From Eubacteriales bacterium (GTDB lineage: Bacteria > Bacillota > Clostridia > Oscillospirales > CAG-272), in contig JAZQMI010000040.1 of the NCBI GenBank assembly GCA_045543375.1, positions 1 to 47,536 on the forward strand: 47,536 bases of DNA, in the 5' to 3' direction. Made by a program: the position numbers and the translations under genes. Of the stretch, positions 30,332-45,813 are shown in pieces. The notes beneath the pieces were generated by a model. The model saw only the letters and a list, made by a program, of their open reading frames with translations. It did no database searches and had not been told where the DNA came from. Numbering within the stretch: the first letter of the stretch is position 1; each line of letters starts with the position of its first letter.

Positions 30332-33142
30332 TCAGTCCTCCAGATTGACAAGGCACTTGGCGCAAAGGAAACCGTCCTCGCTCTGTTTGCCTTCAGTCGA
30401 GTAGCTCCAGCAACGGTCGCACTTGCAGCCGTCGGCGCCCTCAACGAGCACGCCGATGCCCGACACCGTTTCGGTCAGCGCGCCCTCAACGGCCTTACCC
30501 TTCTCAAGCTTAACGCCCGAAACGATGAACACCGTCTTGAGCATATCGCCAAACGAAGACAACAGCTCGTACTGTGCGTCGTCCTCGGTGTAAACGGTCA
30601 GCTTGGCATCCAGCGACTTACCGATCTTCTTATCGGCTCTTGCGATCTCAAGCGCCTTCATGACGTCGTCACGCAGCTCGAACAAAGCATTGTAGCGATC
30701 AGCCTCGCTGCCCAGCTCGTAGCATTCGCAAGCGGCGGGCATACGGTTGAGGAATACGCTCTCGGTCTTATCGCTCGCAAGGTGCGGCATGCACTGCCAG
30801 ATCTCCTCTGCCGTAAAGGACAGAAGCGGTGCCATCAGTCTTACCATGGCGGAAAGCGTCAGGTACATGGCCGTCTGTGCGCTGCGGCGCGCGGGAGAGC
30901 AGGCGCGCTCGGTGTAAACGCGATCCTTGGTGATATCCACGTAAAGCTTGGACAGCTCGGTGGTGCAGAAATTGGTCAGATCGTGATAAATGGTATGGAA
31001 GCAATAGCCCTCATAACCCTTCATGGCGCGGCGGATGAGATCGTTCAATCTCGACAGCAGCCAGCGGTCGATCTCCTGCATGTCCTTGACGTCGACCATA
31101 TCCTTGTTGGGATCGAAGTCGTTCAGGTTTGCCAGAATGATACGCGAGGTGTTGCGGATCTTACGGTAAGCCTCGGAGAGCTGCTTGAAGATCAGATCGG
31201 AGCAGCGGACGTCCACCTGATAGTCGGCAGACGCGACCCAAAGGCGCACAAGGTCAGCACCGTACTTGGCGACCATATCCTGCGGATCGACGCCGTTACC
31301 GAGCGACTTGTGCATGGCGCGGCCTTCACCGTCAACGACCCAACCATGGGTCAGAACGGTCTTGAAGGGTGCCGTCGTGCCGCCCTTGGCACCGATGGCC
31401 GTCAGCAGCGATGCCTGGAACCAACCGCGGTACTGGTCTGCGCCCTCAAGGTACAGATCTGCCGGCCAGGACTGCTCGGGCCAGCCCTTGCCGCCCTCGT
31501 CCTCGAGCACGGCAAAGTGGGTAGAGCCGGAGTCGAACCAGCCGTCCAGCGTGTTCTGCTCCTTGATAAAGTGCGTCTTGCCGCACTTGGGGCAGACGTA
31601 GCCCTCGGGCAGAAGATCCTTGGCATCCATGGCGAACCAGCAGTTGGAGCCGTGTTCCTTGAACATATCGGACACCTTGGCGATGGTTTCTGCGTTGCAG
31701 ATGGTTTCCTTACAATCCTCGCAATAGAAGACGGGAATGGGCAGACCCCAATGACGCTGACGCGAGATGCACCAGTCGGCTCTCTCACCCAGCATCTGCT
31801 TCATGCGCTCGCCGCCCCAGGCGGGCAGCCAGCTCACGTCGTCGCAGGCCTTGACGGCATCGGCGCGGAAGGCGTCGACCGAGCAGAACCACTGCGGCGT
31901 GGCGCGGAAGATGATGGGAGATTTACATCTCCAGCAATGGGGATATTCGTGCTCGAATTCCTTGGAGGCGAACAGTGCGCCGCTCTCGGTCAGGTCGGCC
32001 AGAATGGCAGCGTTGGACTCGTCGTAGTACATACCGGCAAACTTGCCTGCGTCCTCGGTCTGATAGCCGCGATCGTCGACGGGCACGATGATGTCAATGC
32101 CGTAGCGTTTGCAGGTCTGGTAGTCGTCGGCACCAAAGCCGGGTGCGGTGTGGACACAGCCCGTACCGCTGTCCATGGTGACGTAATCAGCCATGAGCAC
32201 GACACTCTCGCGGTCAAGGAAGGGGTGCTGCGTCTTGATGAATTCGAGCTCCTTGCCCTGCATGGTGGCAACAACCTTGAAGTTCTCGACACCGCCCTCG
32301 AGCATGGTCTTGGTGACCAGCGCCTCGGCGATGACGTAATACTCATCGTTCGCCTTAACGACGGCATAGCTCTCGACGGGGTTGAGCGCGATGGCAAGGT
32401 TGCCGGGCAGCGTCCAGGTGGTCGTCGTCCAGATGATGAAATAAGTCTTGGAAAGATCGCAGACATTTGCCAGCTTTCCCATATCATCCTTGACGCGGAA
32501 CTTGACGTAGATAGACGTACACTTGTCGGTCTTGTACTCAATCTCGGCCTCGGCCAGAGCCGTTTCATCCTTGGGGCACCAGTAAACGGGCTTCAGGCCC
32601 TTATAGATGTAGCCCTTACGGAACATCTCGCCGAACACCTTGACCTCACGCGCCTCAAAGGCGGGGTCCATGGTGGTGTAGGGGTTGTTCCAATCAGCGA
32701 CAAGACCCAGACGCTTCATCTGACCGCGCTGGATATCAATGAAATCCTGCGCGAAAGCGTGGCAGGCGCTGCGGAATTCGGGAATGCTCATGGCCTTACG
32801 GTTGAGCTTGTTTTTCTTGATGATGGCCGACTCGATGGGCATGCCGTGGTTGTCCCAACCGGGAACAAAGGGCACGCGATATCCCATCATGGAGCGCGAC
32901 TTGTTGATAAAGTCCTTGAGCGTCTTATTCAAGGCGTGACCCATGTGGATGTTGCCGTTCGAGAAGGGAGGGCCGTCGTGCAGCACGAAGGTGGGGCAGT
33001 CGGCGTTGTTCTCAAGCATTTTGTTGTAAAGATCGATCGACTCCCAGTATTCGAGCATCTTGGGCTCGCGCGTGGGAAGATTTGCCCGCATTTCAAACGA
33101 TGTTGTGGGCAGGTTGAGTGTGGATGTGTAATCCTTTGCCAT
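30332..33142 (-). CDS. ileS: Isoleucyl-tRNA synthetase (type 1)
   Basis: LHDGPP, HMGH, DWCISRQR.WG, EG.DQYRGWF, AMHKS, C-terminal CDRCW...CAKC; Ile T-box upstream. Confidence 0.98.
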   Translation of the reverse strand: MAKDYTSTLNLPTTSFEMRANLPTREPKMLEYWESIDLYNKMLENNADCPTFVLHDGPPFSNGNIHMGHALNKTLKDFINKSRSMMGYRVPFVPGWDNHGMPIESAIIKKNKLNRKAMSIPEFRSACHAFAQDFIDIQRGQMKRLGLVADWNNPYTTMDPAFEAREVKVFGEMFRKGYIYKGLKPVYWCPKDETALAEAEIEYKTDKCTSIYVKFRVKDDMGKLANVCDLSKTYFIIWTTTTWTLPGNLAIALNPVESYAVVKANDEYYVIAEALVTKTMLEGGVENFKVVATMQGKELEFIKTQHPFLDRESVVLMADYVTMDSGTGCVHTAPGFGADDYQTCKRYGIDIIVPVDDRGYQTEDAGKFAGMYYDESNAAILADLTESGALFASKEFEHEYPHCWRCKSPIIFRATPQWFCSVDAFRADAVKACDDVSWLPAWGGERMKQMLGERADWCISRQRHWGLPIPVFYCEDCKETICNAETIAKVSDMFKEHGSNCWFAMDAKDLLPEGYVCPKCGKTHFIKEQNTLDGWFDSGSTHFAVLEDEGGKGWPEQSWPADLYLEGADQYRGWFQASLLTAIGAKGGTTAPFKTVLTHGWVVDGEGRAMHKSLGNGVDPQDMVAKYGADLVRLWVASADYQVDVRCSDLIFKQLSEAYRKIRNTSRIILANLNDFDPNKDMVDVKDMQEIDRWLLSRLNDLIRRAMKGYEGYCFHTIYHDLTNFCTTELSKLYVDITKDRVYTERACSPARRSAQTAMYLTLSAMVRLMAPLLSFTAEEIWQCMPHLASDKTESVFLNRMPAACECYELGSEADRYNALFELRDDVMKALEIARADKKIGKSLDAKLTVYTEDDAQYELLSSFGDMLKTVFIVSGVKLEKGKAVEGALTETVSGIGVLVEGADGCKCDRCWSYSTEGKQSEDGFLCAKCLVNLED

Positions 33143-33185
33143 GTTGGTGTTTCTCCTTTTCGTTTGTTTTTGACCTCGCGGCGGG

Positions 33186-33474
33186 AAACAAAACACGCCC
33201 CACAGCCGCATGCGACTATGAGACGGAACAAGTAAATTCCGCGGTACCACTCACGTTGCGTCCCATGAAGGGAACGCCTCTCACGGCTGCGCCGAGCGGC
33301 ACAGCACCCGACCTTAACGCGGTCAAACGGACGCGACTACTCGGACAAAAACTCTCGCCTTGCCGTTCGCCCCGTCAGCTCCGAAGGGATACGCAACACC
33401 GTCCGCCGCGCCGTCACACCAACCCTGCGCTCTCTGTAGACTTCGTAGTGTCTTGCTTCTTCATCATAACTTTT
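33186..33474 (-). ncRNA. T-box riboswitch leader, Ile specifier
   Basis: AGAGA and GGTGTGA stem-I motifs, specifier ATC (33388-33390), T-box AACGTGAGTGGTACCGCG (33240-33257), terminator 33186-33225. Confidence 0.92.
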
Positions 33475-33480
33475 CATCAT

Positions 33481-33552: not shown

Positions 33553-35754
33553 TTATACCTGCACTCTTGCGATCATTTCGTCCTGAAGCTCGCGCGGCAA
33601 GTCGACGAACACGGCCGACACGCCCCAAAGGCGGACGATCAGGTCGCGGTAGGCGTCCGGATTTTGCTGTGCGGCACGCAATGCCTCGACGCTGAGCACG
33701 TTGGGCTGGTGTTGAAGCCCACCCTTGGCAAAATAGGTCGTGAGCAGTTGGCGGAAGATGGCCTCACCCTCGTTGCCCTCAAACACCGAGGCGTAATAGT
33801 TCACCATGACGCACATATTCCACTGGCACAGCCGTCCGTCGATCTTGGCGGCTGACGACAGCGTAGCCGTTGCGCCCTCACTTGCCGTGCCGCTCTCGGG
33901 TGCCAGCGTGACCGCCACGGGTGTGCCCGCATGGCGTCCCTCGGGCGTCGCCATCAGCTTTTGACCCGTCGGCACGGGGTGCGGCTGATGAATACCGCCC
34001 AAAATCACGCCGCCGTCGCTCGTGCGATATTTGGTCAGCTCCCTCAAGCAGAAGTCAAACAGATCGCAAGCGATCGCGTCGACGGCATCGTCGTCGTTGC
34101 CCCACTTGGGTGCGTTCCACAAGCGTCGGCGCAACAGCTCCTGTCCCTCGCCTTGGTAGTCCGCCTCGCAAGCAGCCACCACCTCGGCAAGCGTTGCCTG
34201 TCCTTTATCATACACGACGTGCTTGATAGCGGCAAGCGAGTTGACCGCCTCGGTCGCCGTACCGAAAAAGACACCGCGTGCGCGAATGGGATAGGGCTCG
34301 TAGATCATATCACACGCCACCTCCAGCGTGCCGTGATACAGCGCGCTGAGCAGCGGCAAGGGCGACATGGGGCTTTTGTTGCGGCAGGCGGGCTGAATAC
34401 CACGACGAAGTCCTTCAAAATACTCGTCGTAGCGCCCGTCGCGGTACAGGTATAGATTGGCCTGTGCGCGATTGTGCGTTTCAATGCCCTGCGCAATATT
34501 TTGCGCCACGTGAGCCTTGTAATCCTCCAGCAGCGCGTCAAAATCCGCATATGGTTTTCCCTGCTTCAAAAGCTCCATGAGCAAATTGGCGAGCATGGGG
34601 TTGCAGACGTAGAAAAAGTCGCCCTTGCCGGGAACGTTGACGTCCTGACAAAGATCAAAGCCGTAGCTGCGCGCGTCGGCCTCATTCAAGCCCGCCGCGC
34701 TCAGATTGGCGACAAAGGCCTCGTCGTTGTAGTACGACACGAAATTACAACCACTCACGGTCAGCTTTGATGCCATCTCCAAAAACTCGGGTGGGTTGCA
34801 AGGGTGCAGGCGCAGATTGAACTCGGGCTCGGGCAATCGGACGCGGTCGATGGCGCGAAGAAACATCATAGTGACCTCACTGACCGCGTTCTCGCCACTT
34901 GGCAGCACGCCGCCAAGTGTAACGACAAGCTGCGAGGAATATTTGTTCAGATAGGTCGTGTTCAGATCGGCCTGATCGTACATTTTCAGCAAAAGACAGC
35001 ACAAAAGCTCCTGTGCCATCTCGTGCGGCGTATCCTTCAGATAGGGGGCAAGTATCACATCAAGGCGCCCGTAGCAAATGAATTCAAAGCTTTCGATGAT
35101 GCAGCCAAGGTGTCCGAACCAAAGTAGCTGCACGGCCTCGTAAAAGGTGTCGGGGGCATCCGTTGCGATCTTACGGCAAATGCGCGCGATCTCGCCAAGG
35201 CGTGCCATCTCGTGCTGCTCCGTACTCTCCCCCACCAGACGCTCCGCCTCGTCGGCGTAGCGCAAAATAAGCGTTTGCAGCCCCTCATAAGCAATGCGCA
35301 CCGACGACAAAAACTCGCGCTGTTCCCGCGTGCAGCCCTCTCGCTCTTCGCGTGCGCGCACGTCGTCAAGAATACCGCCGATGCCGCGCGAGAGAAGAAT
35401 GGACAGGTCGGGCGTGTAGTGCGTTTTGTTGGTATAGCTCTGGTCGACACCAAAGCGCTTGATCTCATCCGCGCGAAGATAGGGGATCTTGGTCGGCAGG
35501 TGATAATCAAAGATGCTGTGTCCGTCGAGATTGCTCTCGTGCGGCGTAAAATAAGTGCGCGTACCCACGATCAGCTCGCGCACGCCGATGTACAGCGGCA
35601 TACGCGCAAAAATGAGTGAAAGTGCCATGGCCTTGCGTTCGGCAATGCTCAAAGGCAAGGTCGATACGTCAAGATCGTTCGGCAACGGCGCGCGCTTGCA
35701 TTTATTGGCACCCGACACCGTCATCTCGCGTAGAAAATCAATTCTGTCGCTCAT
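33553..35754 (-). CDS. Glycyl radical enzyme (PFL-like superfamily) of unknown function
   Basis: ELIVG, P.TFYEAVQL.WF, GRLD, TLGG, YYND, PKWGNDD, ATPEGR.AG.P, Q.NV, P..Y.DLIVR..G.S..FV.L; 733 aa from ATG after AAGGAG; adjacent activase. Confidence 0.92.
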   Translation of the reverse strand: MSDRIDFLREMTVSGANKCKRAPLPNDLDVSTLPLSIAERKAMALSLIFARMPLYIGVRELIVGTRTYFTPHESNLDGHSIFDYHLPTKIPYLRADEIKRFGVDQSYTNKTHYTPDLSILLSRGIGGILDDVRAREEREGCTREQREFLSSVRIAYEGLQTLILRYADEAERLVGESTEQHEMARLGEIARICRKIATDAPDTFYEAVQLLWFGHLGCIIESFEFICYGRLDVILAPYLKDTPHEMAQELLCCLLLKMYDQADLNTTYLNKYSSQLVVTLGGVLPSGENAVSEVTMMFLRAIDRVRLPEPEFNLRLHPCNPPEFLEMASKLTVSGCNFVSYYNDEAFVANLSAAGLNEADARSYGFDLCQDVNVPGKGDFFYVCNPMLANLLMELLKQGKPYADFDALLEDYKAHVAQNIAQGIETHNRAQANLYLYRDGRYDEYFEGLRRGIQPACRNKSPMSPLPLLSALYHGTLEVACDMIYEPYPIRARGVFFGTATEAVNSLAAIKHVVYDKGQATLAEVVAACEADYQGEGQELLRRRLWNAPKWGNDDDAVDAIACDLFDFCLRELTKYRTSDGGVILGGIHQPHPVPTGQKLMATPEGRHAGTPVAVTLAPESGTASEGATATLSSAAKIDGRLCQWNMCVMVNYYASVFEGNEGEAIFRQLLTTYFAKGGLQHQPNVLSVEALRAAQQNPDAYRDLIVRLWGVSAVFVDLPRELQDEMIARVQV

Positions 35755-35771
35755 GATACACGCTCCTTTCT

Positions 35772-36590
35772 TTACTGCTTTTTGAAAAGATACTCGTAAC
35801 GCCCGATTGCCTTGAGTGCTCTTGAGGCATCGCCGACGTAGGTGCAATCAAGGCCGAGCGTTTCATATTTACTCTTACCCAGCGTATGATACGGCATGAG
35901 TGTCACGCGCTCGACGCTCGGCAATCCGTTCACAAAATCTGCGATGCGGCGCATCTCGTCCCCGTCGTCGTTAAAGCCGGGAATGACGGGCACGCGCACC
36001 CACATGGGTTTACCAAGCGAGGACAGCCGTCTTGCGTTGTCCAAGATCAGCGCGTTGTCCGCGCCGATCCAAGCGCGATGACGCGCAGCGTCCATGCACT
36101 TGATATCATACAGATAAAGGTCGCACACCTCCAAGGTTTTTTCAAACGCCGACCACGGCACAGCACCCGAGGTATCGATCGCCGTATGTACGCCCTCGGC
36201 CTTGATGGTACGCAACAGCTCGGTCGCAAAATCGGCTTGCAGCAAACACTCGCCGCCTGACAGCGTGACGCCGCCGTCCGCGCCATAATAAGCGCGGTCG
36301 CGCAGTACCAAGTGCACCGCTGCCTCAAGCGTCATACGCTCGCCGCACACCGACAGTGCCCCCACGGGGCACGCATCCGCCGCTTGGAGCGACGAACGGT
36401 CACCGCAACGTCCGCAACCCATGCATTTTTCTTTAAAAAATTGCAATTCGGGCGCAGCAGACAGCCCTTCGGGGTTATGACACCAGGGGCAGCGCAAGGG
36501 ACAACCCTTGAAAAAGACGGTCGTGCGAATGCCCGGTCCGTCGTGCACCGAAAAGCGTTGCACGCGAAAAACAGTAGCGGTACTGCTCAT
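35772..36590 (-). CDS. Glycyl-radical enzyme activating enzyme (radical SAM)
   Basis: HDGPGIRTTVFFKGCPLRCPWCHNPE, GGVTLSGGE, DTSG, YDIK, R.PVIPGFND, PYH.LG..KY. Confidence 0.95.
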   Translation of the reverse strand: MSSTATVFRVQRFSVHDGPGIRTTVFFKGCPLRCPWCHNPEGLSAAPELQFFKEKCMGCGRCGDRSSLQAADACPVGALSVCGERMTLEAAVHLVLRDRAYYGADGGVTLSGGECLLQADFATELLRTIKAEGVHTAIDTSGAVPWSAFEKTLEVCDLYLYDIKCMDAARHRAWIGADNALILDNARRLSSLGKPMWVRVPVIPGFNDDGDEMRRIADFVNGLPSVERVTLMPYHTLGKSKYETLGLDCTYVGDASRALKAIGRYEYLFKKQ

Positions 36591-36603
36591 CAAACTGCTC
36601 CTC

Positions 36604-37074
36604 TCAAAGGTTTTTTGCTCGCTCCTTGACTGCCGCCACAAAATCGGGCAGCTCATGCTCGTAGCTTCCGCTCATATAAGGGCTGGCCATGATAAAATCG
36701 GCCGTCGCGCGATTGTTGGCGATGGGAATGTCATACACCTGCGCGATGCGGAGTAGTGCCTTGACGTCGGGATCGTGGGGCTGTGCGGTCAACGGGTCGG
36801 AGAAGAAAATGACCACGTCCACCCTTCCCTCCACGATACGCGCGCCGATCTGCTGATCACCGCCCAGAGGACCGCTGTTAAATCCGCGCACGGGCAAGCC
36901 TGTATGCTCGGCGACCATTTTGGCCGTCGTGCCCGTACCGCAAAGAAAATGATGCTCCAGGATCTTTTTGTTTTTGAGGCACCAGTCGATCAGTTCTCTC
37001 TTTTTATTGTCGTGGGCAATGAGGGCAATGTTCTTTTGCCCCTCCATTACCACCTTGACCATTTGCTCTGCCAT
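36604..37074 (-). CDS. mgsA: Methylglyoxal synthase
   Basis: IALIAHDNKK, GTGTT, SGPLGGDQQIGA, DPL...PHDPDVKALLR, A.NRATAD. Confidence 0.97.
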   Translation of the reverse strand: MAEQMVKVVMEGQKNIALIAHDNKKRELIDWCLKNKKILEHHFLCGTGTTAKMVAEHTGLPVRGFNSGPLGGDQQIGARIVEGRVDVVIFFSDPLTAQPHDPDVKALLRIAQVYDIPIANNRATADFIMASPYMSGSYEHELPDFVAAVKERAKNL

Positions 37075-37249: not shown

Positions 37250-37678
37250 ATGAAACAACGTATTCACCGCCCCCGCCGCCCGTGGCGCGAGCGTCTTTAT
37301 TCCTTTATGATCGGTCGCAACGGTGCCGATGCACTCAGCCGCGGACTACTCATGCTGTACCTGATCGTGTGCGTGCTCAATCTGTTTTTGCGTTCCTATA
37401 TCGTCTACGCACTCGGCTACGCCATCATCATCTATTCGCTGTTCCGCATGTTTTCGCGTAATCTGCCCGCTCGGCGACGAGAAAATGCATGGTATTTGCG
37501 CGTCAAAGGGAAAGTCACCGGCTTTTTCAAGCTGCAAAAGAACAAATGGCGCGATCGCAAAACGCACGCCTACCGCAAATGCCCCGCCTGTAAAAGTGTG
37601 CTGCGCTTGCCCAGACAAAAGGGCAAGCACACCGTCAACTGTCCCCGCTGTCACAATCGTTTTCAAGTCAAAATATGA
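37250..37678 (+). CDS. Small membrane protein with C-terminal zinc ribbon
   Basis: FM.GRNG.D.L, two TM segments, FRMFSRN...R..EN, CPAC...CPRC. Confidence 0.8.
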   Translation: MKQRIHRPRRPWRERLYSFMIGRNGADALSRGLLMLYLIVCVLNLFLRSYIVYALGYAIIIYSLFRMFSRNLPARRRENAWYLRVKGKVTGFFKLQKNKWRDRKTHAYRKCPACKSVLRLPRQKGKHTVNCPRCHNRFQVKI

Positions 37679-37726: not shown

Positions 37727-40423
37727 TTATCTGTATCTATCCTTTTTTCTCATATAGAAAATAATAACAAGAAGAATGATAATGATGCAGATCAGAAGGA
37801 TCAGCCAGAACAGCCACATGCAGGGACGCTCCGGCTCTTCGGGTACAACAGGCTCACCAGGTTCGTCGGGCGTCTGCGTAGGCTCAAGCTGAGGGATTTC
37901 CTCAGTTCTGCTTGCACTTCCGCAGGTGGTGCAGGTGTAGGTCTTGACACCGGCAGCCTCCTCGGTCGCCTCGACCGTTACCTCACCCTCGTTCCAGGTG
38001 TGCTCAAGCGCGGGAATGACCTCGGTCTTGACGTAAGCACAGACCGAGCAGGTGTAGGTCTTGGTGCCCTCAACGCCGCAAGCTGCCGGCGTGATCTCCT
38101 CTACCCAGGCGTGTGCCTGCTCGCCGATGCGATCTCCACAGCTGCATGCGATCCAGTGGTGCGTGTCGTTGACCGACCACTGAGCCGAGGATACCGTCTG
38201 GTGCGTGTGTTCAAGCACGGGGATCTCCTCCGTCTTGGTCTCGCGGCAAACGGTACAGATATGCGTCAGAACGCCGGGTGTCTGCTCGGTGGCTGCCGTC
38301 GTGACCGTGCCGGCATCCCAGGTGTGATCGCTCAAGGGGATCTCCTCGGTCTTGGTATAGGCGCAGGCGGTACAGGTCAGCTTCATCGTACCCTTGCTCT
38401 CACAGGTTGCTGCAAGCACAACCTCCTGCTCCCAATCGTGTCCGTTCACGTTGGCGCGTTCGCCGCAAAGGCACTCGTACCAATGCTCAGTATCACTATG
38501 CTTCCACGTGTTGATATAAACGTGCACGTGGCTCAACGAGGGGGTCTCCACCGTCTTGGTGTCACCGCAGTCCAGGCAGGTCAGCAGCTTTTCACCGGTA
38601 GAGCTCTCGGTCGCAGGCTTGGTGACGACACCGTCGTCCCACTTGTGCGCGGTGTACTCCCATTCCAGGCAATCCATGCACTGGTGCTTTTGCTCGTTCT
38701 CGTCTACGCTCGACCACTCACCGTAGTTGTGAGGTGCCTTGCTGCCGTACTCGCTGTGACAAGCATCGCAAATTGCCTTTGCCGAACAGGTGGCCTGTCC
38801 ACCGGCATGCTGCTCGCGTCCGTCCGTTGCGTTACAGCCATCGCGCAGACACTCGTAGTAATGGTAGTTGACGTTGGAGGAATACGTCGTTGCGAAATCG
38901 TGACCCAGCTCGGTGCCGTAGCTGAACGTCTCGTCGCCCTTGTGACCGCATGCGCAGCTCTTATAATACAGTGCTGCCTGCGTGCAGTTTGCCTCGGACT
39001 TCAGATATTCGGGCTTAGCGACCTCTTGGTCGTGAACGTGATCGGCAAGCGCACCGTAGGATTGTCCGCAAGCGTCACACACCGCCTGTGCAGAGCAGGT
39101 CGCCTGACCGCCCGCATGCGCGCCGCGACCGTCGGTCACGGTACAGCCGTCACGCAGGCACTCGTAGTAGTGCTCGGTATCGTTGGAGGTGTAAGTCTTG
39201 GAGAAATCGTGACCACGTGCCGTGCCGAACGTAAAGGTTTCGCTCGTTGTCTCACCGCACACGCAGCTCTTGTAATATACGGCCGCGTGCTCGCAATCCG
39301 CAGCACTGACCAGGAAGGCGTCGTCTACGACTTCCTTATAATCGTGAGGCAGCGGAGAGCCGACCGTAAACGTGTTGGTATCTGCCAGACCACAAGCCGA
39401 GCAGCTAAAGTAGTAGCTGGCTGCGTTTTGGCAATCAGCCGCACTTGCCAGATATTCGTCGGCCACGACCTGCGCATCAAACTCGTGAGTCAGCGGCGCA
39501 CCGACCGTGAACGTGTTGGTGTCTGCCAGACCGCAATCCGGGCAGCTGTAATAGTAGGTAGCGGCGTTGTAGCAATCCGCGGCGCTTGCCAGATAGGCTT
39601 CCGTCGCGATTTCGGCGTCAAAGGTGTGAGGCTTGCTCTCTCCGTCGCCGCATCCCGAGCAGACCTTCTCATGCTCGCCCGTTTCTCCGTTCGGAGTCCA
39701 GTTACCGTAATTATGAGGCTCGCTCTCTACGCCGTGGCAGACAGTGCACTCGCGCTCGTGCTTTTGCGAGCCCTTATAGATCCAACCGTCATACTCACCC
39801 ACATAGGTGTGAGGAACCGGTGCAAGCAGCTCACCGCCGCTCGTGTAGGTGTCACAATCGGGGCAATAGATGCCGGCTGCATTGCCCTGCCCCTGGCAGG
39901 TCGAGGGCTCGGCGTCCTTGTAGTAAGCGTTGGCGTGGGGGCAAGTGACGGTCAGCGTTGCCGTCGTCGTGGTCGTGCAGGAAACGGCGGCACCGGTGGC
40001 ATCCTGCAGTCCAGTCATTGCACAACTGATCTGGGTCTGTTCGAGTGCCGCAGTATCCAACACCCTGAAGGTTACCGTCAGAATGGTACCGTTTACATTG
40101 CCGGAAGCGGGAAAACCGTTCATACCGAGGAAAGCAAATACAGCCAATCCGGTAGACGGATCGAAGGATGCCATCATGGTGTTAACGTGAACGGTGCCAC
40201 TCACGGGCTCGAGTACGTTCGGATCGTAAATCATTTCAATTCCACCGGACTTCAGGTCGGGAGCGCCGGAAAGTGTGACCGTAACCGTCACGGTTTCTCC
40301 GCGGCCGGCACCGGTCTTATCAACGCTGACATCAGCCGTTGCCGCAGAGTTGGCAAAGGCAGGAAAAGCCGTCAAAGCAAGCACAAGCATTACGATAACA
40401 CTTGCGAGTAAAAATTTTTTCAT
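37727..40423 (-). CDS. Membrane-anchored cohesin-domain protein with Cys/His-rich repetitive stalk
   Basis: Signal peptide (AFA); cohesin pattern GETVTVTV.L...IYDPNVLE...GTIL.VTF.V.D.A; ~19 H..C/CxxC modules; C-terminal TM plus RKKDRYR. Confidence 0.82.
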   Translation of the reverse strand: MKKFLLASVIVMLVLALTAFPAFANSAATADVSVDKTGAGRGETVTVTVTLSGAPDLKSGGIEMIYDPNVLEPVSGTVHVNTMMASFDPSTGLAVFAFLGMNGFPASGNVNGTILTVTFRVLDTAALEQTQISCAMTGLQDATGAAVSCTTTTTATLTVTCPHANAYYKDAEPSTCQGQGNAAGIYCPDCDTYTSGGELLAPVPHTYVGEYDGWIYKGSQKHERECTVCHGVESEPHNYGNWTPNGETGEHEKVCSGCGDGESKPHTFDAEIATEAYLASAADCYNAATYYYSCPDCGLADTNTFTVGAPLTHEFDAQVVADEYLASAADCQNAASYYFSCSACGLADTNTFTVGSPLPHDYKEVVDDAFLVSAADCEHAAVYYKSCVCGETTSETFTFGTARGHDFSKTYTSNDTEHYYECLRDGCTVTDGRGAHAGGQATCSAQAVCDACGQSYGALADHVHDQEVAKPEYLKSEANCTQAALYYKSCACGHKGDETFSYGTELGHDFATTYSSNVNYHYYECLRDGCNATDGREQHAGGQATCSAKAICDACHSEYGSKAPHNYGEWSSVDENEQKHQCMDCLEWEYTAHKWDDGVVTKPATESSTGEKLLTCLDCGDTKTVETPSLSHVHVYINTWKHSDTEHWYECLCGERANVNGHDWEQEVVLAATCESKGTMKLTCTACAYTKTEEIPLSDHTWDAGTVTTAATEQTPGVLTHICTVCRETKTEEIPVLEHTHQTVSSAQWSVNDTHHWIACSCGDRIGEQAHAWVEEITPAACGVEGTKTYTCSVCAYVKTEVIPALEHTWNEGEVTVEATEEAAGVKTYTCTTCGSASRTEEIPQLEPTQTPDEPGEPVVPEEPERPCMWLFWLILLICIIIILLVIIFYMRKKDRYR

Positions 40424-40470
40424 ATTGGTCTCCTTCGTATATGTTTTTATATCGCACACATTTTAACGCG

Positions 40471-43400
40471 TTACGTCAGCGGATATTGCGCGGGGAAGAA
40501 CGTGTGGAAAAGCAGGTAGATCGCATCGTCCATCGTCACATCGCCATCGCGATCGTAATCACAAGGCTGCTCAACGGGATACTGCGACGGGAAGATGGTA
40601 TAGAACAGCAGATAAATAGCATCTTCCATGCTCACTCCCTCCACGCCGTCGATGTCACCGGGAACGTAGGGCGTGATCTCCACAAACTCTCTGCCGTATT
40701 TCTCGGCGTAAGCCTGTGCGGTCGAGTCGGCGTAGCCGTAGATCACGGCAGTCGCGCTGATGGTATCCTCGGCATCGAAGATATCGACCTCATTCGAACG
40801 GATGGTGATCTTGGTCAAGCCGTCGCAATCGGCAAAAGCAGACTCGTCGATGCTTTCCACAGCCTCACTGATCGTGATCTCCTCAAGAGCATCGCATCCG
40901 TAAAATGCGCCGTATCCGATTGCCGTCACAGCGTCGGGAATCACGATGGAGGTCAGGCAGCTATAGGCAAACGCCGCATCGCCGATCACCGTCACGGTGC
41001 CGTTATTGGGAATCACGCTCGACTGACAACCTGCGATCAGCGTAGCCGTTGCGACTTCGATGATGCAATTCTGGGCGGAGTAGTAAACGGGGTTGCCCGC
41101 TGCTACGGTCAGGGTGGACAAGTTTTGAGCGCAAAGCGCGGCAAGGCCGATGTGGGTAACGCTCTTGGGAAGAGTAAAGGAGGTCAGTCCGGTTTCGAAG
41201 AAGGCACCTTCGCCGATAGAAACGATCGAACCGGGAAGAATGACCTCGGTCAGCTCAGCCAGACCCTCGAACGCGTAATCGCCGATCTCGGTAACGGGCA
41301 AGGTGAAGTAAGTTGCGGGAACGGTAACCTTCGTTTCCGTACCCGTGTAGCCCGTCAGCACGTACGCCGTACCCTGGGCGTTCAGCGCAAATTCCAGACC
41401 GTCAAGTGCTGCAAACGTGCGGTTGTACTTGGTCGCGTATTTCTCTGCGGTCGAACCAAGGTAACCGTAGATTGCCACGCCGGACGGGATGGTATTTTTG
41501 CTGTCCTCCAGAATAACCGTAGAGGAAAGCAGTGTAATACTTTGCAGCGTTACGCCATCGGTAATGGCCGTTGTGGTGGTGGCATTGGTGGGGGCCGCCT
41601 GCATGCCGCGAGGAACAAGAATGTCGGGAGGAAGCTCAACGGTGCCACCGCCGCCCTGCGAGTTGGTCGCAAACGCGCTCTTGGTCACGCGCACAACGGG
41701 AAGGCCGGCATAGACCTCGGGAACGATCACGTGCACGTCCGTGCCCTCGTAGCCCGTGACGCTGTACTGCGTGCCCGCAGCGTTGAGCGTGTAGACGAGG
41801 CCCTCAGTGCCCAGCGTAAGATCGGGCTGCTCGGGTTCGGGTTCGGGCTCGGGCTCCAACGCCTCGAAGACTCTGCCGTTCATTTCAGCGTACGTCTGAG
41901 CCGTTGAGCCCATGTAGCCGTGTATGGTGGCACTTGCCGAAATCGTATTGGCACTTTGATCGATATCCGCATGCGGGGACAAGAACGTGATGCTTTGGAG
42001 CTCGCTACAGAAGAAGGCCATCAGATCGACGCTCTTCACCTTTGCGGGAATGACGATCTCGGTAATGGCAGTAGAGGCGAATGCATTCATTCCGATCACG
42101 TTAAGGCTTTCGGGAAGGGTGACGCTTGCAAGATTCATACAGTTTGCAAATGCGTTGTCTCCGACGTGCGTCACGCCCTCGGGAATGACGACCGATTCGA
42201 TCTCGTAATCTTCGGAAAAAGCAGAGTCGCCAATGGAGGTCACGCTGCCGTCCGCAGGGATCTCAAAACTGCCGTATCCAAGCAGCAACATACCGCTCTT
42301 GTTTTCAATCAGACAGTTGCCGACGACGGTGTATGCCGAGTTTTCAGCGTCGACCGTAAAGCTCGTCAAAAAGTCCATACCCTTAAAGGCCAGTTCACCG
42401 ATCTCGGTCACGCTGGCGGGAAGATGAACGCTTTCGATGCCGCAGCCCGAGAAGGCTCGGATACCAATGCTCTCCACGCCCTCGGGAAGCGTGATCTCAG
42501 TGATCGCGGAATTGCAGAAAAATGCGTAAGCGCCGATGCGCTTGATGCTTCCGTCCGTCGGAATCACGCAGTCGGGCGTGCCCAGAAGCAGCGTTTGGCT
42601 GTCCAGCTCGATCAGGCAACCGTCCGTGACGGCGTAGGCGGTATTGCCCTCAGCCACCGTCAAGGTTGTCAGCTCCTTGCAGGCATAGAAGGCGCCCTCT
42701 GCAATCTTGACGACACCGCTCGGGATCTCAACGCTTTCGAGCCCGTAGCAGGAATCAAACGCGTAGCAAAGAATGATCCGAGTATCCTCGTGAATCGTAA
42801 GGGAACCGGTCACCTCCGCGGGGGCCAACACCAACGCATGGTACGGATTTGATTCGTTTCCAAGATACAGCGAGCCCTCATAAGTATGGAAGCCCAACGA
42901 CGCGCAATCGTCAAACGCATGCTCCTCAATGTCCGTCATGGTGTTGGGGATCGAGATATCCGTCAGTGCTTCACAGCCGCAGAAGGCATATGCGCCGATG
43001 GACGTCACGCCCTCGGGGATCACAAGGGAAGACAACTGATCGCAGCTGTAGAAGGCATACGCGCCAATGCTCTTGACGCTGCCCGGAATTTCAACACTTT
43101 CAACGTTGGAAATGCTGAAAGCCCAATCGTCGATGGCCGTTACGGGCAGGTCCTGATAAGTAGCGGGAATGACAAGCTCGGTCAAGGAACCGTAATAGCT
43201 CTTGACGACGTAGCTCTGCTCGTCGTCACCGAGCACGTAGGCGATGCCCTGCTCGTCGGTCAATATCTCCTCCTGCTCGGGCGGTGCGGGCGTATCCCCG
43301 GCGTTTCCGCCCTCTCCTTGATCGGGAGCGGTACCGGTATTATCGTTCGCGCCAGCATCACCCTCGGGGGTATCCTGCGCGTTGCCCGGAGGTGTCGGAG

Positions 43401-43533
43401 CAACGGGTTGCGTTGTGTCGTTCGCGTCGGGCTGTGTGTCCTGGGCGCTGACACCAAGTGTAAGGCTTGAGGTAAGTAGCAATGCAAGCGCCAAAAGGAC
43501 GCTACAGAGCTTTCGGCTATTTCTGCTTTTCAT
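40471..43533 (-). CDS. Secreted BspA-type leucine-rich repeat protein with C-terminal dockerin
   Basis: Signal peptide; many IP.xVTxIGxxAF repeats; C-terminal duplicated GDIDG..GVSMEDAIYLL / DYDRDGDVTMDDAIYLL. Confidence 0.88.
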   Translation of the reverse strand: MKSRNSRKLCSVLLALALLLTSSLTLGVSAQDTQPDANDTTQPVAPTPPGNAQDTPEGDAGANDNTGTAPDQGEGGNAGDTPAPPEQEEILTDEQGIAYVLGDDEQSYVVKSYYGSLTELVIPATYQDLPVTAIDDWAFSISNVESVEIPGSVKSIGAYAFYSCDQLSSLVIPEGVTSIGAYAFCGCEALTDISIPNTMTDIEEHAFDDCASLGFHTYEGSLYLGNESNPYHALVLAPAEVTGSLTIHEDTRIILCYAFDSCYGLESVEIPSGVVKIAEGAFYACKELTTLTVAEGNTAYAVTDGCLIELDSQTLLLGTPDCVIPTDGSIKRIGAYAFFCNSAITEITLPEGVESIGIRAFSGCGIESVHLPASVTEIGELAFKGMDFLTSFTVDAENSAYTVVGNCLIENKSGMLLLGYGSFEIPADGSVTSIGDSAFSEDYEIESVVIPEGVTHVGDNAFANCMNLASVTLPESLNVIGMNAFASTAITEIVIPAKVKSVDLMAFFCSELQSITFLSPHADIDQSANTISASATIHGYMGSTAQTYAEMNGRVFEALEPEPEPEPEQPDLTLGTEGLVYTLNAAGTQYSVTGYEGTDVHVIVPEVYAGLPVVRVTKSAFATNSQGGGGTVELPPDILVPRGMQAAPTNATTTTAITDGVTLQSITLLSSTVILEDSKNTIPSGVAIYGYLGSTAEKYATKYNRTFAALDGLEFALNAQGTAYVLTGYTGTETKVTVPATYFTLPVTEIGDYAFEGLAELTEVILPGSIVSIGEGAFFETGLTSFTLPKSVTHIGLAALCAQNLSTLTVAAGNPVYYSAQNCIIEVATATLIAGCQSSVIPNNGTVTVIGDAAFAYSCLTSIVIPDAVTAIGYGAFYGCDALEEITISEAVESIDESAFADCDGLTKITIRSNEVDIFDAEDTISATAVIYGYADSTAQAYAEKYGREFVEITPYVPGDIDGVEGVSMEDAIYLLFYTIFPSQYPVEQPCDYDRDGDVTMDDAIYLLFHTFFPAQYPLT

Positions 43534-43577
43534 ATCTTTGCCTTTCCTTTCCGTGGTTATATAGTTATACAAATTAT

Positions 43578-43606
43578 ATTATAGCATAGCGCTGCCGCTT
43601 TGTCAA
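43578..43606 (-). promoter_or_regulatory. Consensus sigma-A promoter of LRR-dockerin/cohesin operon
   Basis: Minus strand TTGACA-N17-TATAAT with TG. Confidence 0.85.
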
Positions 43607-43813
43607 CCGCGATTTGCACGGTCGGAAAATTTGTTTTCAGAAAATTCGCAGCCCAAAAATATAACAAAAAGTAGGAATATTATCTTAATTTTGTTTTATT
43701 TTGCATGCACATCACATATGAAATCGTCGCTTACATCACGCACTTCCGTCGGTGTTGTGCACAAAGCACGGTGAAAAAAGCAGTTTTGTTTTGATTTTTT
43801 GTATATTTTAGAC

Positions 43814-43853
43814 TTGACAAAGCATATCTTGATATGGTATAATGTGTTATAAT
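43814..43853 (+). promoter_or_regulatory. Strong sigma-A promoter(s) pointing into an ORF-less region
   Basis: TTGACA-N18-TATAAT with TG, plus second TG-n-TATAAT at 43845-43853. Confidence 0.7.
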
Positions 43854-43859
43854 GAAAAA

Positions 43860-44245
43860 CTCGTAAATGCGACTTTTTTAATCTATTGCGTTTTCACGTG
43901 ACGCATAAATTTCAGTCGTCCGCCCGTGGCGGACACCTTCAAAGCAGAAGTTCACGCAGCGAAGCACCCGATCCTCGGAACACGGACTTGCAACACCGTG
44001 CTCCGCGCAGGGCATCAGAACCCAAGACCTTACGGTGCTACCGTTCGGGCAGATGGCAACCAAGGGACGGATTTGCGCACGCGCAAGCCGATGATAAGAC
44101 TTATCTCCTTCTCATCATCGGACCGTGCTTCGCTTGAGCTTATTTGTCTGCCGCTCCGTGCATACCCTCCATTTTCTGCACGGAGTAACGGCAAATCATA
44201 CATCAAAACAAGCGGCGACGTCAGACGACGTCGCCGCTTGTTTTT
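43860..44245. ncRNA. Candidate structured non-coding RNA, family unassigned
   Basis: At least seven stems incl. long-range AGCGAAGCAC/GTGCTTCGCT; lies between a promoter and a terminator; no ORF with a usable RBS. Confidence 0.5.
44205..44245. terminator. Bidirectional intrinsic terminator
   Basis: AAAACAAGCGGCGACGTC / GACGTCGCCGCTTGTTTT. Confidence 0.88.
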
Positions 44246-44247
44246 CG

Positions 44248-45687
44248 TTACAAAATCATTTGCTCTTGCCCACGCTCAAGCTTTTTCTTGACAATGGCGA
44301 CCATAATAAAATGTGCCGTCAAGGTAATGATCCAAGAAACGGGGTAAGACAGGAACAGGCACTCGATGGTGTGCCACTTTTGGAAGATGGTCAGGATCCA
44401 CACCACGCGCAAAGCGCATGCACCCGTCAGAGAGATCATCATGGGCATAAAGGTCTTGCCCATGCCGCGCAGCACGCCGCAGCCGACCTCCATGATGCCG
44501 CACAGGAAATAAGTCGTGACGATGATGCTCATACGCAGCATGCCGTAGTCGATGGCAGCGCTCTCATCGACGAAAAAGCCGAGAAGCGGGCGACCGAAGA
44601 TGAGCACGATGGCACCCATAGCAGCGCCTGCCGCCACGGTCAGCCCGATGCAAGAGAAAATAACGCGATTGATGCGTTCGAATTTGCGCGCACCGACGTG
44701 CTGACCGACAAAGGTGATAGCCCCTTGGTAAGCCGCGTTTTGCGCGGTGTAGACGAAGCCCTCCACGTTGCTCGCAGCAGCGCTGCCGTTGACCAGTGCC
44801 TCAACGCCGAACGACTGGATCGAGGACTGAATGAGCACGTTGGAAAAGCTGAACAGCACGCCCTGAACACCTGCGGGGATACCGATCTTGAGCATGAGTG
44901 CAACCTTTTCGCGCTTGATGGTCAGATGGCGCAGCGAAAGGCGGCAGGAATCCTTGACGAAGAAGGTCATGTAGACGACCGTCATGATGGCGGCCAGATA
45001 CTGCGATGCTGCCGTGGCGATGCCCACGCCCACAGCACCCATGCCAAAGCCAATGACCATCCAAAGGTTCAGCAGCACGTTGGCAAGTCCCGAGATACCG
45101 AGAAAGATGAGCGGACGCACCGAGTCACCCTTGGCGCGCAGCGCCGCAGCGCAATAGTTATACACCATGATGCCGGGCACACCGACCATATAGGCCTTGA
45201 TATAGGGCACCGCCTCGACCATGATACCGTCGAGCGTTCCCATCATGCGCAGTGCCGGCTCGGATATGAAAAAGCCCAGAACGCCGACCGCCACGCCCAT
45301 GATCAGCGACAGCGAAAAGGCGGTATGTACGACGTCGGAAACGTCTCGGTCGCGCTTGGCACCCGTGTACTGCGCCACGCTGACGCTGACGCCCGTGGCA
45401 AGTCCGATGAACAGGTTAACGATGAGGTTGATGAGCGAGCCACACGAGCCGACCGCTCCCACGGCCGTATCGGTGGCAAACTGCCCGAGCACGATCATGT
45501 CGGTGGCGTTATATAACAGCTGCAGCATGCTTGAGAGCATGAGTGGCAGGCAAAATGCGATCAACTGCGGCAAAATAGGACCTACGGTCAGATCCTTTTT
45601 GGGCTTGCTTCGATAGGTTCTGTGCCGACGGTGGAGCGAGGCCATGGCCGACGGCGGTCCAAAATGAAAGGGTGCGCTTCTTTTCAT
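44248..45687 (-). CDS. MATE family efflux transporter
   Basis: DLT.GPI, LQLLYN..D..VLG, LRAKGDS.RPL, VGQ.VGA, G.LRGMG; 12 TM pattern. Confidence 0.95.
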   Translation of the reverse strand: MKRSAPFHFGPPSAMASLHRRHRTYRSKPKKDLTVGPILPQLIAFCLPLMLSSMLQLLYNATDMIVLGQFATDTAVGAVGSCGSLINLIVNLFIGLATGVSVSVAQYTGAKRDRDVSDVVHTAFSLSLIMGVAVGVLGFFISEPALRMMGTLDGIMVEAVPYIKAYMVGVPGIMVYNYCAAALRAKGDSVRPLIFLGISGLANVLLNLWMVIGFGMGAVGVGIATAASQYLAAIMTVVYMTFFVKDSCRLSLRHLTIKREKVALMLKIGIPAGVQGVLFSFSNVLIQSSIQSFGVEALVNGSAAASNVEGFVYTAQNAAYQGAITFVGQHVGARKFERINRVIFSCIGLTVAAGAAMGAIVLIFGRPLLGFFVDESAAIDYGMLRMSIIVTTYFLCGIMEVGCGVLRGMGKTFMPMMISLTGACALRVVWILTIFQKWHTIECLFLSYPVSWIITLTAHFIMVAIVKKKLERGQEQMIL

Positions 45688-45784
45688 GATATTCCTCCAA
45701 GGGTGACATTCCAAAACGTCACCTACAACATTACCTATTATACACCCTTTCGCATGAAAGTCAAGGGTCGCGGCAACAATTTCA

Positions 45785-45813
45785 TTGACAAAATGCATAT
45801 TTCATGTTAGAAT
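45785..45813 (+). promoter_or_regulatory. Sigma-A promoter (extended -10)
   Basis: TTGACA-N17-TAGAAT with TG. Confidence 0.75.

Follow-up and report, generated by a model that had tools for sequence, protein, structure and literature searches.

A probable structured RNA gene with anti-Shine-Dalgarno-like loops, so far found in a single species of Clostridia

What is encoded in the 675-bp gap that separates two minus-strand genes, for a BspA-type LRR protein and a MATE transporter, in an Eubacteriales bacterium of the family CAG-272? The question was examined in a 47,536-nucleotide (nt) stretch of DNA (below, the window), comprising positions 1–47,536 of contig JAZQMI010000040.1 from GenBank assembly GCA_045543375.1. 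The gap holds a strongly structured element, which a first-pass annotation, made from the sequence without database searches, had placed between a strong promoter and a terminator and had tentatively taken for a novel non-coding RNA, a divergent 6S RNA or a structured mobile element. The analysis described here indicates that the element is a new structured RNA gene that is probably expressed, belongs to a generally familiar kind and has so far been seen in a single species. The plus strand is likely to be the functional one, being favoured by a consensus promoter and by better folding z-scores. As a more specific reading, a stand-alone, lineage-specific non-coding RNA gene on the plus strand, acting as an RNAIII/RoxS-like translational regulator with anti-Shine-Dalgarno loops, is put forward tentatively, at somewhat less than even confidence.

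The transcription unit

The promoter scan revealed two perfect, divergently oriented sigma-70 sites in the gap, one on the minus strand at 43606–43578, directly upstream of the LRR gene, and one on the plus strand at 43814–43843, facing the structured element. The latter consists of TTGACA, an 18-nt spacer and a TG-extended TATAAT, matching the consensus at 12 of 12 hexamer positions, with a predicted start at about 43850–43852. An intrinsic terminator with a U-run on both strands was recognized at 44205–44249, about 355 nt (to its hairpin) beyond this start. Its hairpin is formed by pairing of 44205–44222 with 44227–44244, whereby a G+C-rich stem of 14 bp is lengthened to 18 bp, and is capped by a 4-nt loop; beyond the G+C-rich part come TTTTT on the plus strand and a T-rich run on the minus strand. 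The hairpin lies 3 nt from the stop codon of the MATE gene (44248–44250) and would therefore serve as a two-way terminator shared with this convergent gene. The segment 44205–44244 was absent from the output of the consensus terminator scan, and the call is based on reading of the sequence and on the folds. Together with the cover by RNA-library contigs (see below), the promoter and the terminator define a predicted primary transcript of about 395–400 nt on the plus strand, from 43851 to the U-tract at 44249. The promoter, the structured element and the terminator named in the first-pass annotation were thus all recovered where it had placed them, in a unit of about 395 nt.

Predicted secondary structure

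All helices listed in the first-pass annotation were present in the minimum free energy (MFE) fold of the plus strand. The transcript would begin with an AU-rich 5' leader (43853–43905) with two weak hairpins (43853–43880 and 43887–43905), which is poorly constrained and had a mean unpaired probability of 0.49 in the partition function. The leader is followed by hairpin H1 (43915–43937), a 7-bp stem GUCCGCC/GGCGGAC (43918–43934) extended by a G-C pair between 43915 and 43937, and then by a multi-branched core domain at 43944–44147. The core is closed by 21 pairs arranged in three stacked helices (5 + 6 + 10), of which AGUUCA/UGAGCU pairs 43949–43954 with 44135–44140, and AGCGAAGCAC/GUGCUUCGCU pairs 43958–43967 with 44125–44134 in ten perfect base pairs. 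It encloses a four-hairpin sub-domain, a hairpin UUUGCG/CGCAAG and hairpin P4 (44088–44121), with inner stems CGGA.CACGG/CCGUG.UCCG, ACGGU/ACCGU, UUUGCG/CGCAAG and CCGAUGAU/AUCAUCGG. Downstream of the core stands hairpin P5 (44149–44193; 5 + 9 bp), UGCCG-CUCCGUGCA/UGCACGGAG-CGGCA.

The two largest apical loops belong to P4 and P5 and display UCUCCU and CCCUCC, respectively. The apical loop of P4 exposes CUUAUCUCCU, which includes the anti-Shine-Dalgarno-like CUCCU, and the 14-nt loop of P5, UACCCUCCAUUUUC, exposes CCCUCC. The partition function gave unpaired probabilities of 0.98–0.99 for the P4 loop and 1.00 for the P5 loop, in agreement with the annotated exposure of CTCCT and CCCTCC. Among 200 dinucleotide-shuffled versions of the RNA, just two had CUCC or CCUC in two hairpin loops.

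The whole unit (43850–44245) folded with an MFE of -155.5 kcal/mol against -110.3 ± 5.9 kcal/mol for its dinucleotide shuffles (z = -7.72), none of 100 shuffles folding as stably. When the AU-rich leader and the terminator were left out (43910–44200), z was -4.95 and again no shuffle, out of 200, was as stable, so the fold of the element is real and beyond chance. The minus strand gave z-scores of -6.09 for the whole unit and of -3.88 with leader and terminator left out.

RNA-library cover and strain variation

Among the runs listed, 31-mers of the element were found in 20 runs from 10 studies, all bovine or gut metagenomes, and four of these 20 runs were RNA libraries. Contigs from four runs, two of RNA (X6 and X19, belonging to different studies) plus X3 and X7, were aligned to 43300–44800 (1.5 kb). 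Run X6 yielded a single 314-nt contig covering 43888–44201, and run X19 a 168-nt contig covering 43984–44151; in both RNA runs these were the sole contigs on the 1.5 kb, the flanking genes being uncovered. Run X3, whose kind was guessed as DNA, gave a 12.6-kb contig spanning the whole stretch. The RNA-library contigs hint at a discrete and relatively abundant transcript, the missing flank cover being a hint at most because contigs drop low-depth sequence; if the transcript spans 43851–44249, the approximately 40 nt missing at each end could be accounted for by ends lost at low depth.

The strain contigs differed from the window at ten sites within the unit. Two pairs of changes were compensatory. 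In X3 and X7 the terminator has G-C in place of one A-U pair (44208 A>G and 44241 T>C), and in X7 the pair extending H1 is A-U instead of G-C (43915 G>A and 43937 C>T; the register of pairing was verified by hand). Three changes in X7, at 43864, 43870 and 43871, disrupt the first leader hairpin, and 43852 A>G (X3 and X7) falls at the predicted 5' end. In P4, 44115 T>C (X3 and X19) converts an A-U pair into A.C on the plus strand and G.U on the minus strand; P5 was free of variants in X3, X7 and X6. A further change, 43834 A>G, lies in the promoter spacer of X3 and X7, both hexamers being unchanged in these two runs. In X7, seven of 118 positions were changed in 43851–43968 against none of 236 in 43969–44204 (Fisher p = 4e-4, with the boundary chosen post hoc), and in X3, 17 of 555 positions were changed in the 3' end of the MATE gene against one of 236 in the core 43969–44204 (p = 0.02). 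The core is thus nearly invariant among the strains.

Known RNA families and coding potential

The first-pass annotation had recommended a search of Rfam on both strands, a collection of homologues and a determination of copy number. The whole window was scanned with cmscan against the 4227 families of Rfam 15 at the gathering score, and 43550–44300 was rescanned permissively on both strands at E <= 10. No family exceeded its gathering score on the element, and the permissive scan returned ten noise-level matches to microRNA, snoRNA and small RNA models, mostly microRNA models on the terminator palindrome. The same scan detected a T-box leader elsewhere in the window at 94.8 bits, the sole match above gathering score in the window, which served as a positive control. 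SRP RNA, riboswitches, T-box and other cis-leaders (all of Rfam 15) had no match on the element at or near the gathering score. The models for RNAIII (RF00503) and RsaE (RF01820) were not among the matches at E <= 10, and ROOL, GOLLD, OLE, raiA and CsrB-type models gave no match at that threshold.

The 6S RNA model (RF00013) had no match on either strand of 43550–44300 at E <= 10. A full-length 6S-like match was located on another contig of the genome (C122:20197–20420, plus strand) at 42.5 bits, slightly below the gathering score of 46.4, and this is probably the real 6S RNA of the genome. Similarly, the RNase P RNA models (RF00010/RF00011) did not match the element, the RNase P RNA of the genome being found at C80:200–551 (234 bits). 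The tmRNA model (RF00023) was without a match on the element, and ARAGORN detected neither tRNA nor tmRNA in 43000–45000; the tmRNA of the genome is located at C41:15172–15562 (156 bits). As RNase P RNA, tmRNA and a 6S-like RNA reside on other contigs, the element is none of these. The annotated absence of RNase P, tmRNA, SRP and riboswitch signatures was therefore borne out by Rfam and ARAGORN, and the proposal of a novel non-coding RNA agrees with the lack of an Rfam match, with the element's own promoter and terminator and with RNA-library contigs from two studies that cover the element alone. The idea of a divergent 6S RNA had to be abandoned, given the absence of a model match at E <= 10, the 6S-like locus elsewhere and the multi-branched fold.

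The two longest plus-strand frames, of 83 amino acids from TTG and of 121 amino acids from GTG, had no Pfam match, and reading of the sequence showed neither an ATG nor a Shine-Dalgarno sequence for them; a coding role for the element was rejected on these grounds. The 83-codon frame ends in 'LIIGPCFA', which is read at 44106–44134 on the plus strand, from the 3' side of P4 and of the closing helix. The same segment gave BLAST matches of 22–29 nt with 90–96% identity to a conserved biosynthetic gene in four genomes of the family, which were judged to have arisen by chance. A pseudogene origin, suggested by the likeness of 'LIIGPCFA' to a DAHP-synthase motif, was dismissed as chance, the rest of the frame being unlike this enzyme and without a Pfam match.

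Copy number and searches for homologues

The source genome is a 1.8-Mb assembly of 130 contigs with 81% completeness, in which the element occurs as a single copy. The homologue searches relied on a first-pass filter, on a covariance model from one sequence and on genomes that are samples of their groups, and within these bounds they found no homologue by BLAST, covariance model or exact pattern. BLAST with the element gave no matches in 60 relatives and none in 400 genomes of the order (30 families) at E <= 1e-4. In 400 genomes of the family, at E <= 0.01, matches of just 20–43 nt appeared in 21 genomes; 13 of the 22 listed match sites were inspected by eye and resembled unrelated coding sequence, four of them lying on one conserved gene with the 'LIIGPC' motif. 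Model R1, a covariance model made from just one sequence of the core together with the MFE fold of that sequence, scored 232.9 bits against itself. At E <= 1 it found nothing in 12 genomes of the genus and matched in three of 150 family genomes, the best match (21.5 bits) having broken pairs throughout the alignment. In 68 MATE-bearing loci it gave no match either. MATE orthologues were present in all 12 genus genomes, and the element was not found downstream of MATE in the ten best genus loci; the 58 metagenome MATE loci were all at most 67% identical.

An exact 21-mer of the element was not found in a collection of genomes from 185,579 species. A search of the genome collection with the two-loop pattern produced eight matches in unrelated phyla, none of them like the element, and these were discarded as chance. 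Two 20-mers of the element were without matches in viral contigs, and blastn of the element against phages and plasmids gave no match. As far as sequence searches go, the element is an orphan that has so far been found in one species. The annotated alternative of a structured mobile element was not supported as such, given the single copy and the absence of phage, plasmid and viral-contig matches; the element does lie in a 6.5-kb stretch that two sister species do not have (see below). Repeated or mobile elements of the ωRNA/HEARO, retron or REP-like kind are likewise not indicated, given the single copy and the absence of an adjacent element-encoded protein such as IscB/TnpB, a reverse transcriptase or a transposase.

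Proposed function and comparison with known regulators

The exposed C/U-rich motifs are complementary to the core motif of the Shine-Dalgarno (SD) sequence, as is expected of riboregulators of the RNAIII or RoxS-RsaE type. RNAIII and RsaE bind SD sequences in this mode through C-rich regions and without Hfq. The Hfq gene was not found in the genome, and neither was CsrA (PF02599), although at 81% completeness of the assembly absence is not proven; an Hfq-independent, RNAIII/RoxS-like riboregulator is therefore proposed. Transcription would proceed from the consensus sigma-70 promoter on the plus strand to the two-way intrinsic terminator, producing an RNA of about 395 nt that may act in trans and, presumably, independently of Hfq. 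The P4 (UCUCCU) and P5 (CCCUCC) loops would pair with the ribosome-binding sites of target mRNAs and thereby block or modulate their translation, the structured core possibly serving as a scaffold, a stability domain or a site for a protein partner. The putative RNA gene is divergent from the promoter of the cohesin/LRR cassette, and co-regulation with this cassette is possible.

Staphylococcus aureus RNAIII (RF00503) resembles the element in being a large multi-hairpin regulatory RNA of a few hundred nt with its own strong promoter and terminator and a narrow lineage, and in having pyrimidine-rich apical loops, which in RNAIII pair with the SD regions of targets. In contrast to RNAIII, the element has no sequence or structure match to it, no embedded peptide gene (hld) and no adjoining quorum-sensing locus. 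RoxS/RsaE RNAs (RF01820) are about 100 nt long. They share with the element the exposed C-rich motifs and act without a known hub protein, in line with the lack of a detected Hfq gene here. The element differs in being known from one species instead of being widely conserved, in its roughly fourfold length and multi-branched fold, and in carrying CUCC rather than CCCC. In PMC5419742, the C-rich regions of RoxS are described as binding G-rich SD sequences and inhibiting translation initiation. Like the element as read here, 6S RNA (RF00013) is structured, abundant and encoded by a stand-alone gene with a promoter of its own; 6S RNA, however, is a rod with a central bubble, whereas the element is branched, has no match to the model and coexists with a separate 6S-like locus. 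ROOL, GOLLD and raiA are likewise strongly structured, non-coding RNAs of gut or rumen Firmicutes with unassigned function, ROOL being described as a rumen-originating RNA. The element matches none of these models at E <= 10, is shorter than ROOL or GOLLD and is not located in a prophage or tRNA context.

Species-restricted small RNAs are common in bacteria. Regulatory RNAs of uncultured gut Clostridia-like bacteria are almost unknown. The textbook transcription signals, the very stable fold and the metatranscriptome assemblies from two studies make the element a concrete candidate for experiments. If an RNAIII-like role tied to the cohesin/dockerin surface cassette were true, RNA control would be linked to cell-surface display in rumen or gut Firmicutes. 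The element is an orphan, and it makes no long-standing question newly testable. A bolder version is speculative and unlikely: that the element is the founding, single-species member of a new class of multi-branched bacterial RNAs of about 0.4 kb, highly expressed in the bovine gut, which would act as an RNAIII-like master regulator titrating ribosome-binding sites through two anti-SD loops on a rigid core, or whose core would itself be the active part, as a binding site for a protein or by assembling into an RNA structure of higher order.

Weighing of the alternatives

Several observations speak against the proposed plus-strand anti-SD regulator. Any C/U-rich loop pairs with any SD sequence, which makes the motif by itself weak evidence, and the searches for targets remained at chance level: exact complementarity reached 13–14 nt at most, blastn-short gave a best E-value of 0.14, duplex energies against 1515 crudely defined gene starts genome-wide made no target stand out, and the start sites of the neighbouring LRR and cohesin genes were unremarkable in this crude ranking. 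The proposal of an anti-SD regulator is accordingly weak. The RNA contigs are unstranded, give no strand, ends or level and cannot prove transcription, and those of X6 and X19 end at different places. Covariation support for the core fold is absent, homologues not having been found; the compensatory changes are confined to the terminator and hairpin H1, and one of the predicted C-G pairs is lost through 43968 C>A in X3 and X7. In X3, conservation of the core does not differ significantly from that of the upstream flank (one change in 236 positions against seven in 551, p = 0.45). Finally, two 1x1 A.C mismatches of the plus-strand fold (43980.44001 and 44096.44113) become G.U pairs on the minus strand, the minus-strand fold has nine G-U pairs and a lower absolute energy, and through the variant 44115 T>C the plus-strand fold loses 4 kcal/mol, the minus-strand fold 0.6 kcal/mol.

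These last points concern the strand, which the first-pass annotation had left in doubt on account of about four A-C mismatches on the plus strand. Two such mismatches exist in the reference and a third arises through the variant at 44115. The doubt was fair in so far as the modelled thermodynamics is ambiguous on the choice of strand, with mixed results from the energies of natural variants as a strand test, but the promoter geometry favours the plus strand. A functional minus strand, or a sense/antisense pair, would show AGGAG and GGAGGG in its loops, SD-like motifs with GGA of the sort that a sponge for CsrA or a decoy for ribosomes would carry. The mismatches that turn into G.U pairs, the near-neutrality of 44115 T>C there, the lower MFE and a terminator that works both ways are in its favour. 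Yet the best minus-strand promoter matches only 9 of 12 positions, lies inside the terminator and would start transcription at about 44188, whereas RNA contig X6 reaches 44201; the MATE terminator stands between the MATE gene and the element and blocks read-through on this strand; the z-scores favour the plus strand; and five G-U pairs of the plus-strand fold become A.C on the minus strand. A CsrB-type sponge, with many GGA loops and CsrA, is not apparent either, as just two GGA-bearing loops occur on the minus strand and a CsrA gene was not found in the incomplete genome. This explanation is accordingly left with a small chance. A protein-binding or purely structural role of the core is a serious rival, albeit in itself unlikely: the RNA would work through its folded core as a protein-sequestering RNA, a scaffold or a small 'ornate' tertiary fold, the anti-SD loops being incidental. 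The part that is invariant in the strains is the whole core 43969–44204 and extends beyond the loops, the helices are long and perfect within a five-way branched architecture, and the target searches found no specific target, all of which suits such a role. The neighbourhood, on the other hand, suggests no partner, the protein-binding or large RNAs of Rfam (6S, CsrB-type, ROOL, GOLLD, OLE and raiA) gave no match at E <= 10, and tertiary contacts are without support, as homologues were not found.

The absence of homologues and targets would also be expected of a chance or relic palindrome-rich spacer transcribed from a fortuitous consensus promoter, and its perfect helices with few wobbles resemble those of young sequence; such a functionless origin is nevertheless distinctly unlikely, because none of 100 and none of 200 shuffles folded as well, two compensatory changes were observed, and the promoter hexamers and the core were kept among strains in which the 5' leader and the MATE gene vary. 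The form of the unit, a promoter followed by a long structured leader and a terminator with no plus-strand gene behind it, recalls an orphaned cis-regulatory leader (a riboswitch, a T-box-like leader or an attenuator) whose downstream gene would have disappeared with the acquisition or rearrangement of the cohesin/LRR stretch; the unit also borders the 6.5-kb indel that distinguishes the window from two sister species. The chances of this explanation are slim: no riboswitch or leader family matched at E <= 10, although the T-box of the window was detected by the same scan, the terminator is the two-way one shared with MATE and not an attenuator with an alternative antiterminator, and a near-invariant core is unexpected for a relic. 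The least probable explanation, to which we attach very little weight, is a small-protein mRNA or the highly structured mRNA of a type I toxin. A length of about 400 nt, a strong structure and promoter and a shared two-way terminator do resemble the type I toxin loci of Firmicutes, but no ATG frame with an SD sequence was present, the long frames, whose TTG or GTG start codons fall within helices, encode Arg-rich and not hydrophobic sequences without a Pfam match, and the promoter scan detected no convergent antisense promoter.

Genomic environment

The MATE gene at 44248–45798 (minus strand) was identified by its MatE domain (E = 1.9e-42). On the other side of the gap, the LRR gene at 40471–43533 (minus strand) encodes a protein of 1020 amino acids with six stretches of Pfam LRR_5 (E = 2.8e-107), which by eye ends in two dockerin-like repeats. 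It is followed by a gene at 37727–40459 (minus strand) for a cohesin-domain protein of 898–910 amino acids, and by a zinc-ribbon gene at 37250–37678. The cohesin protein and the dockerin-like LRR protein suggest a cohesin-dockerin pair for surface display. The neighbours of the element are thus cohesin, LRR, MATE and DJ-1 proteins, and neither a prophage nor a tRNA context was seen.

In the two closest species, whose MATE proteins are 73–77% identical, the genes are ordered as class I aminoacyl-tRNA synthetase, MGS-domain gene, zinc-ribbon gene, MATE, DJ-1 and CAAX protease. The window keeps this order with two extra blocks. One of them, located between the synthetase and the MGS-domain gene at 33553–36656 (minus strand), comprises a pyruvate-formate-lyase-like glycyl-radical enzyme and its radical-SAM activase and is without a counterpart at this place in the two sister species (G010 and G006). 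The other, between the zinc-ribbon gene and MATE, contains the cohesin gene, the LRR gene and the structured RNA; it extends over 6.5 kb and is not present in the two sister species. The cohesin protein had no match at E <= 1e-40 in 400 family genomes. The LRR protein was matched in 77 of the 400 at E <= 1e-30, the matches being partial (identity no higher than 58%, over no more than 422 residues) and none representing an orthologue. Judged by this comparison of sequences, the 6.5-kb stretch to which the putative RNA gene belongs is species-specific; an integrase, transposase or repeat that would mark it as mobile was not found.

The spacer between the two divergent 12/12 promoters (43573–43813; 240 bp) is AT-rich, with 31–41% G+C, and holds an 8-bp palindrome TGTGCACA at 43756–43763 together with short repeats. 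It could represent a shared operator region; a repeat scan of this spacer yielded nothing convincing. The T-box leader of the window is located at 33216–33476 on the minus strand, where its score of 94.8 bits slightly exceeded the gathering score of 93. It lies upstream of the class I aminoacyl-tRNA synthetase gene at 30332–33250 (minus strand), which was assigned to tRNA-synt_1 with an E-value of 3.3e-135.

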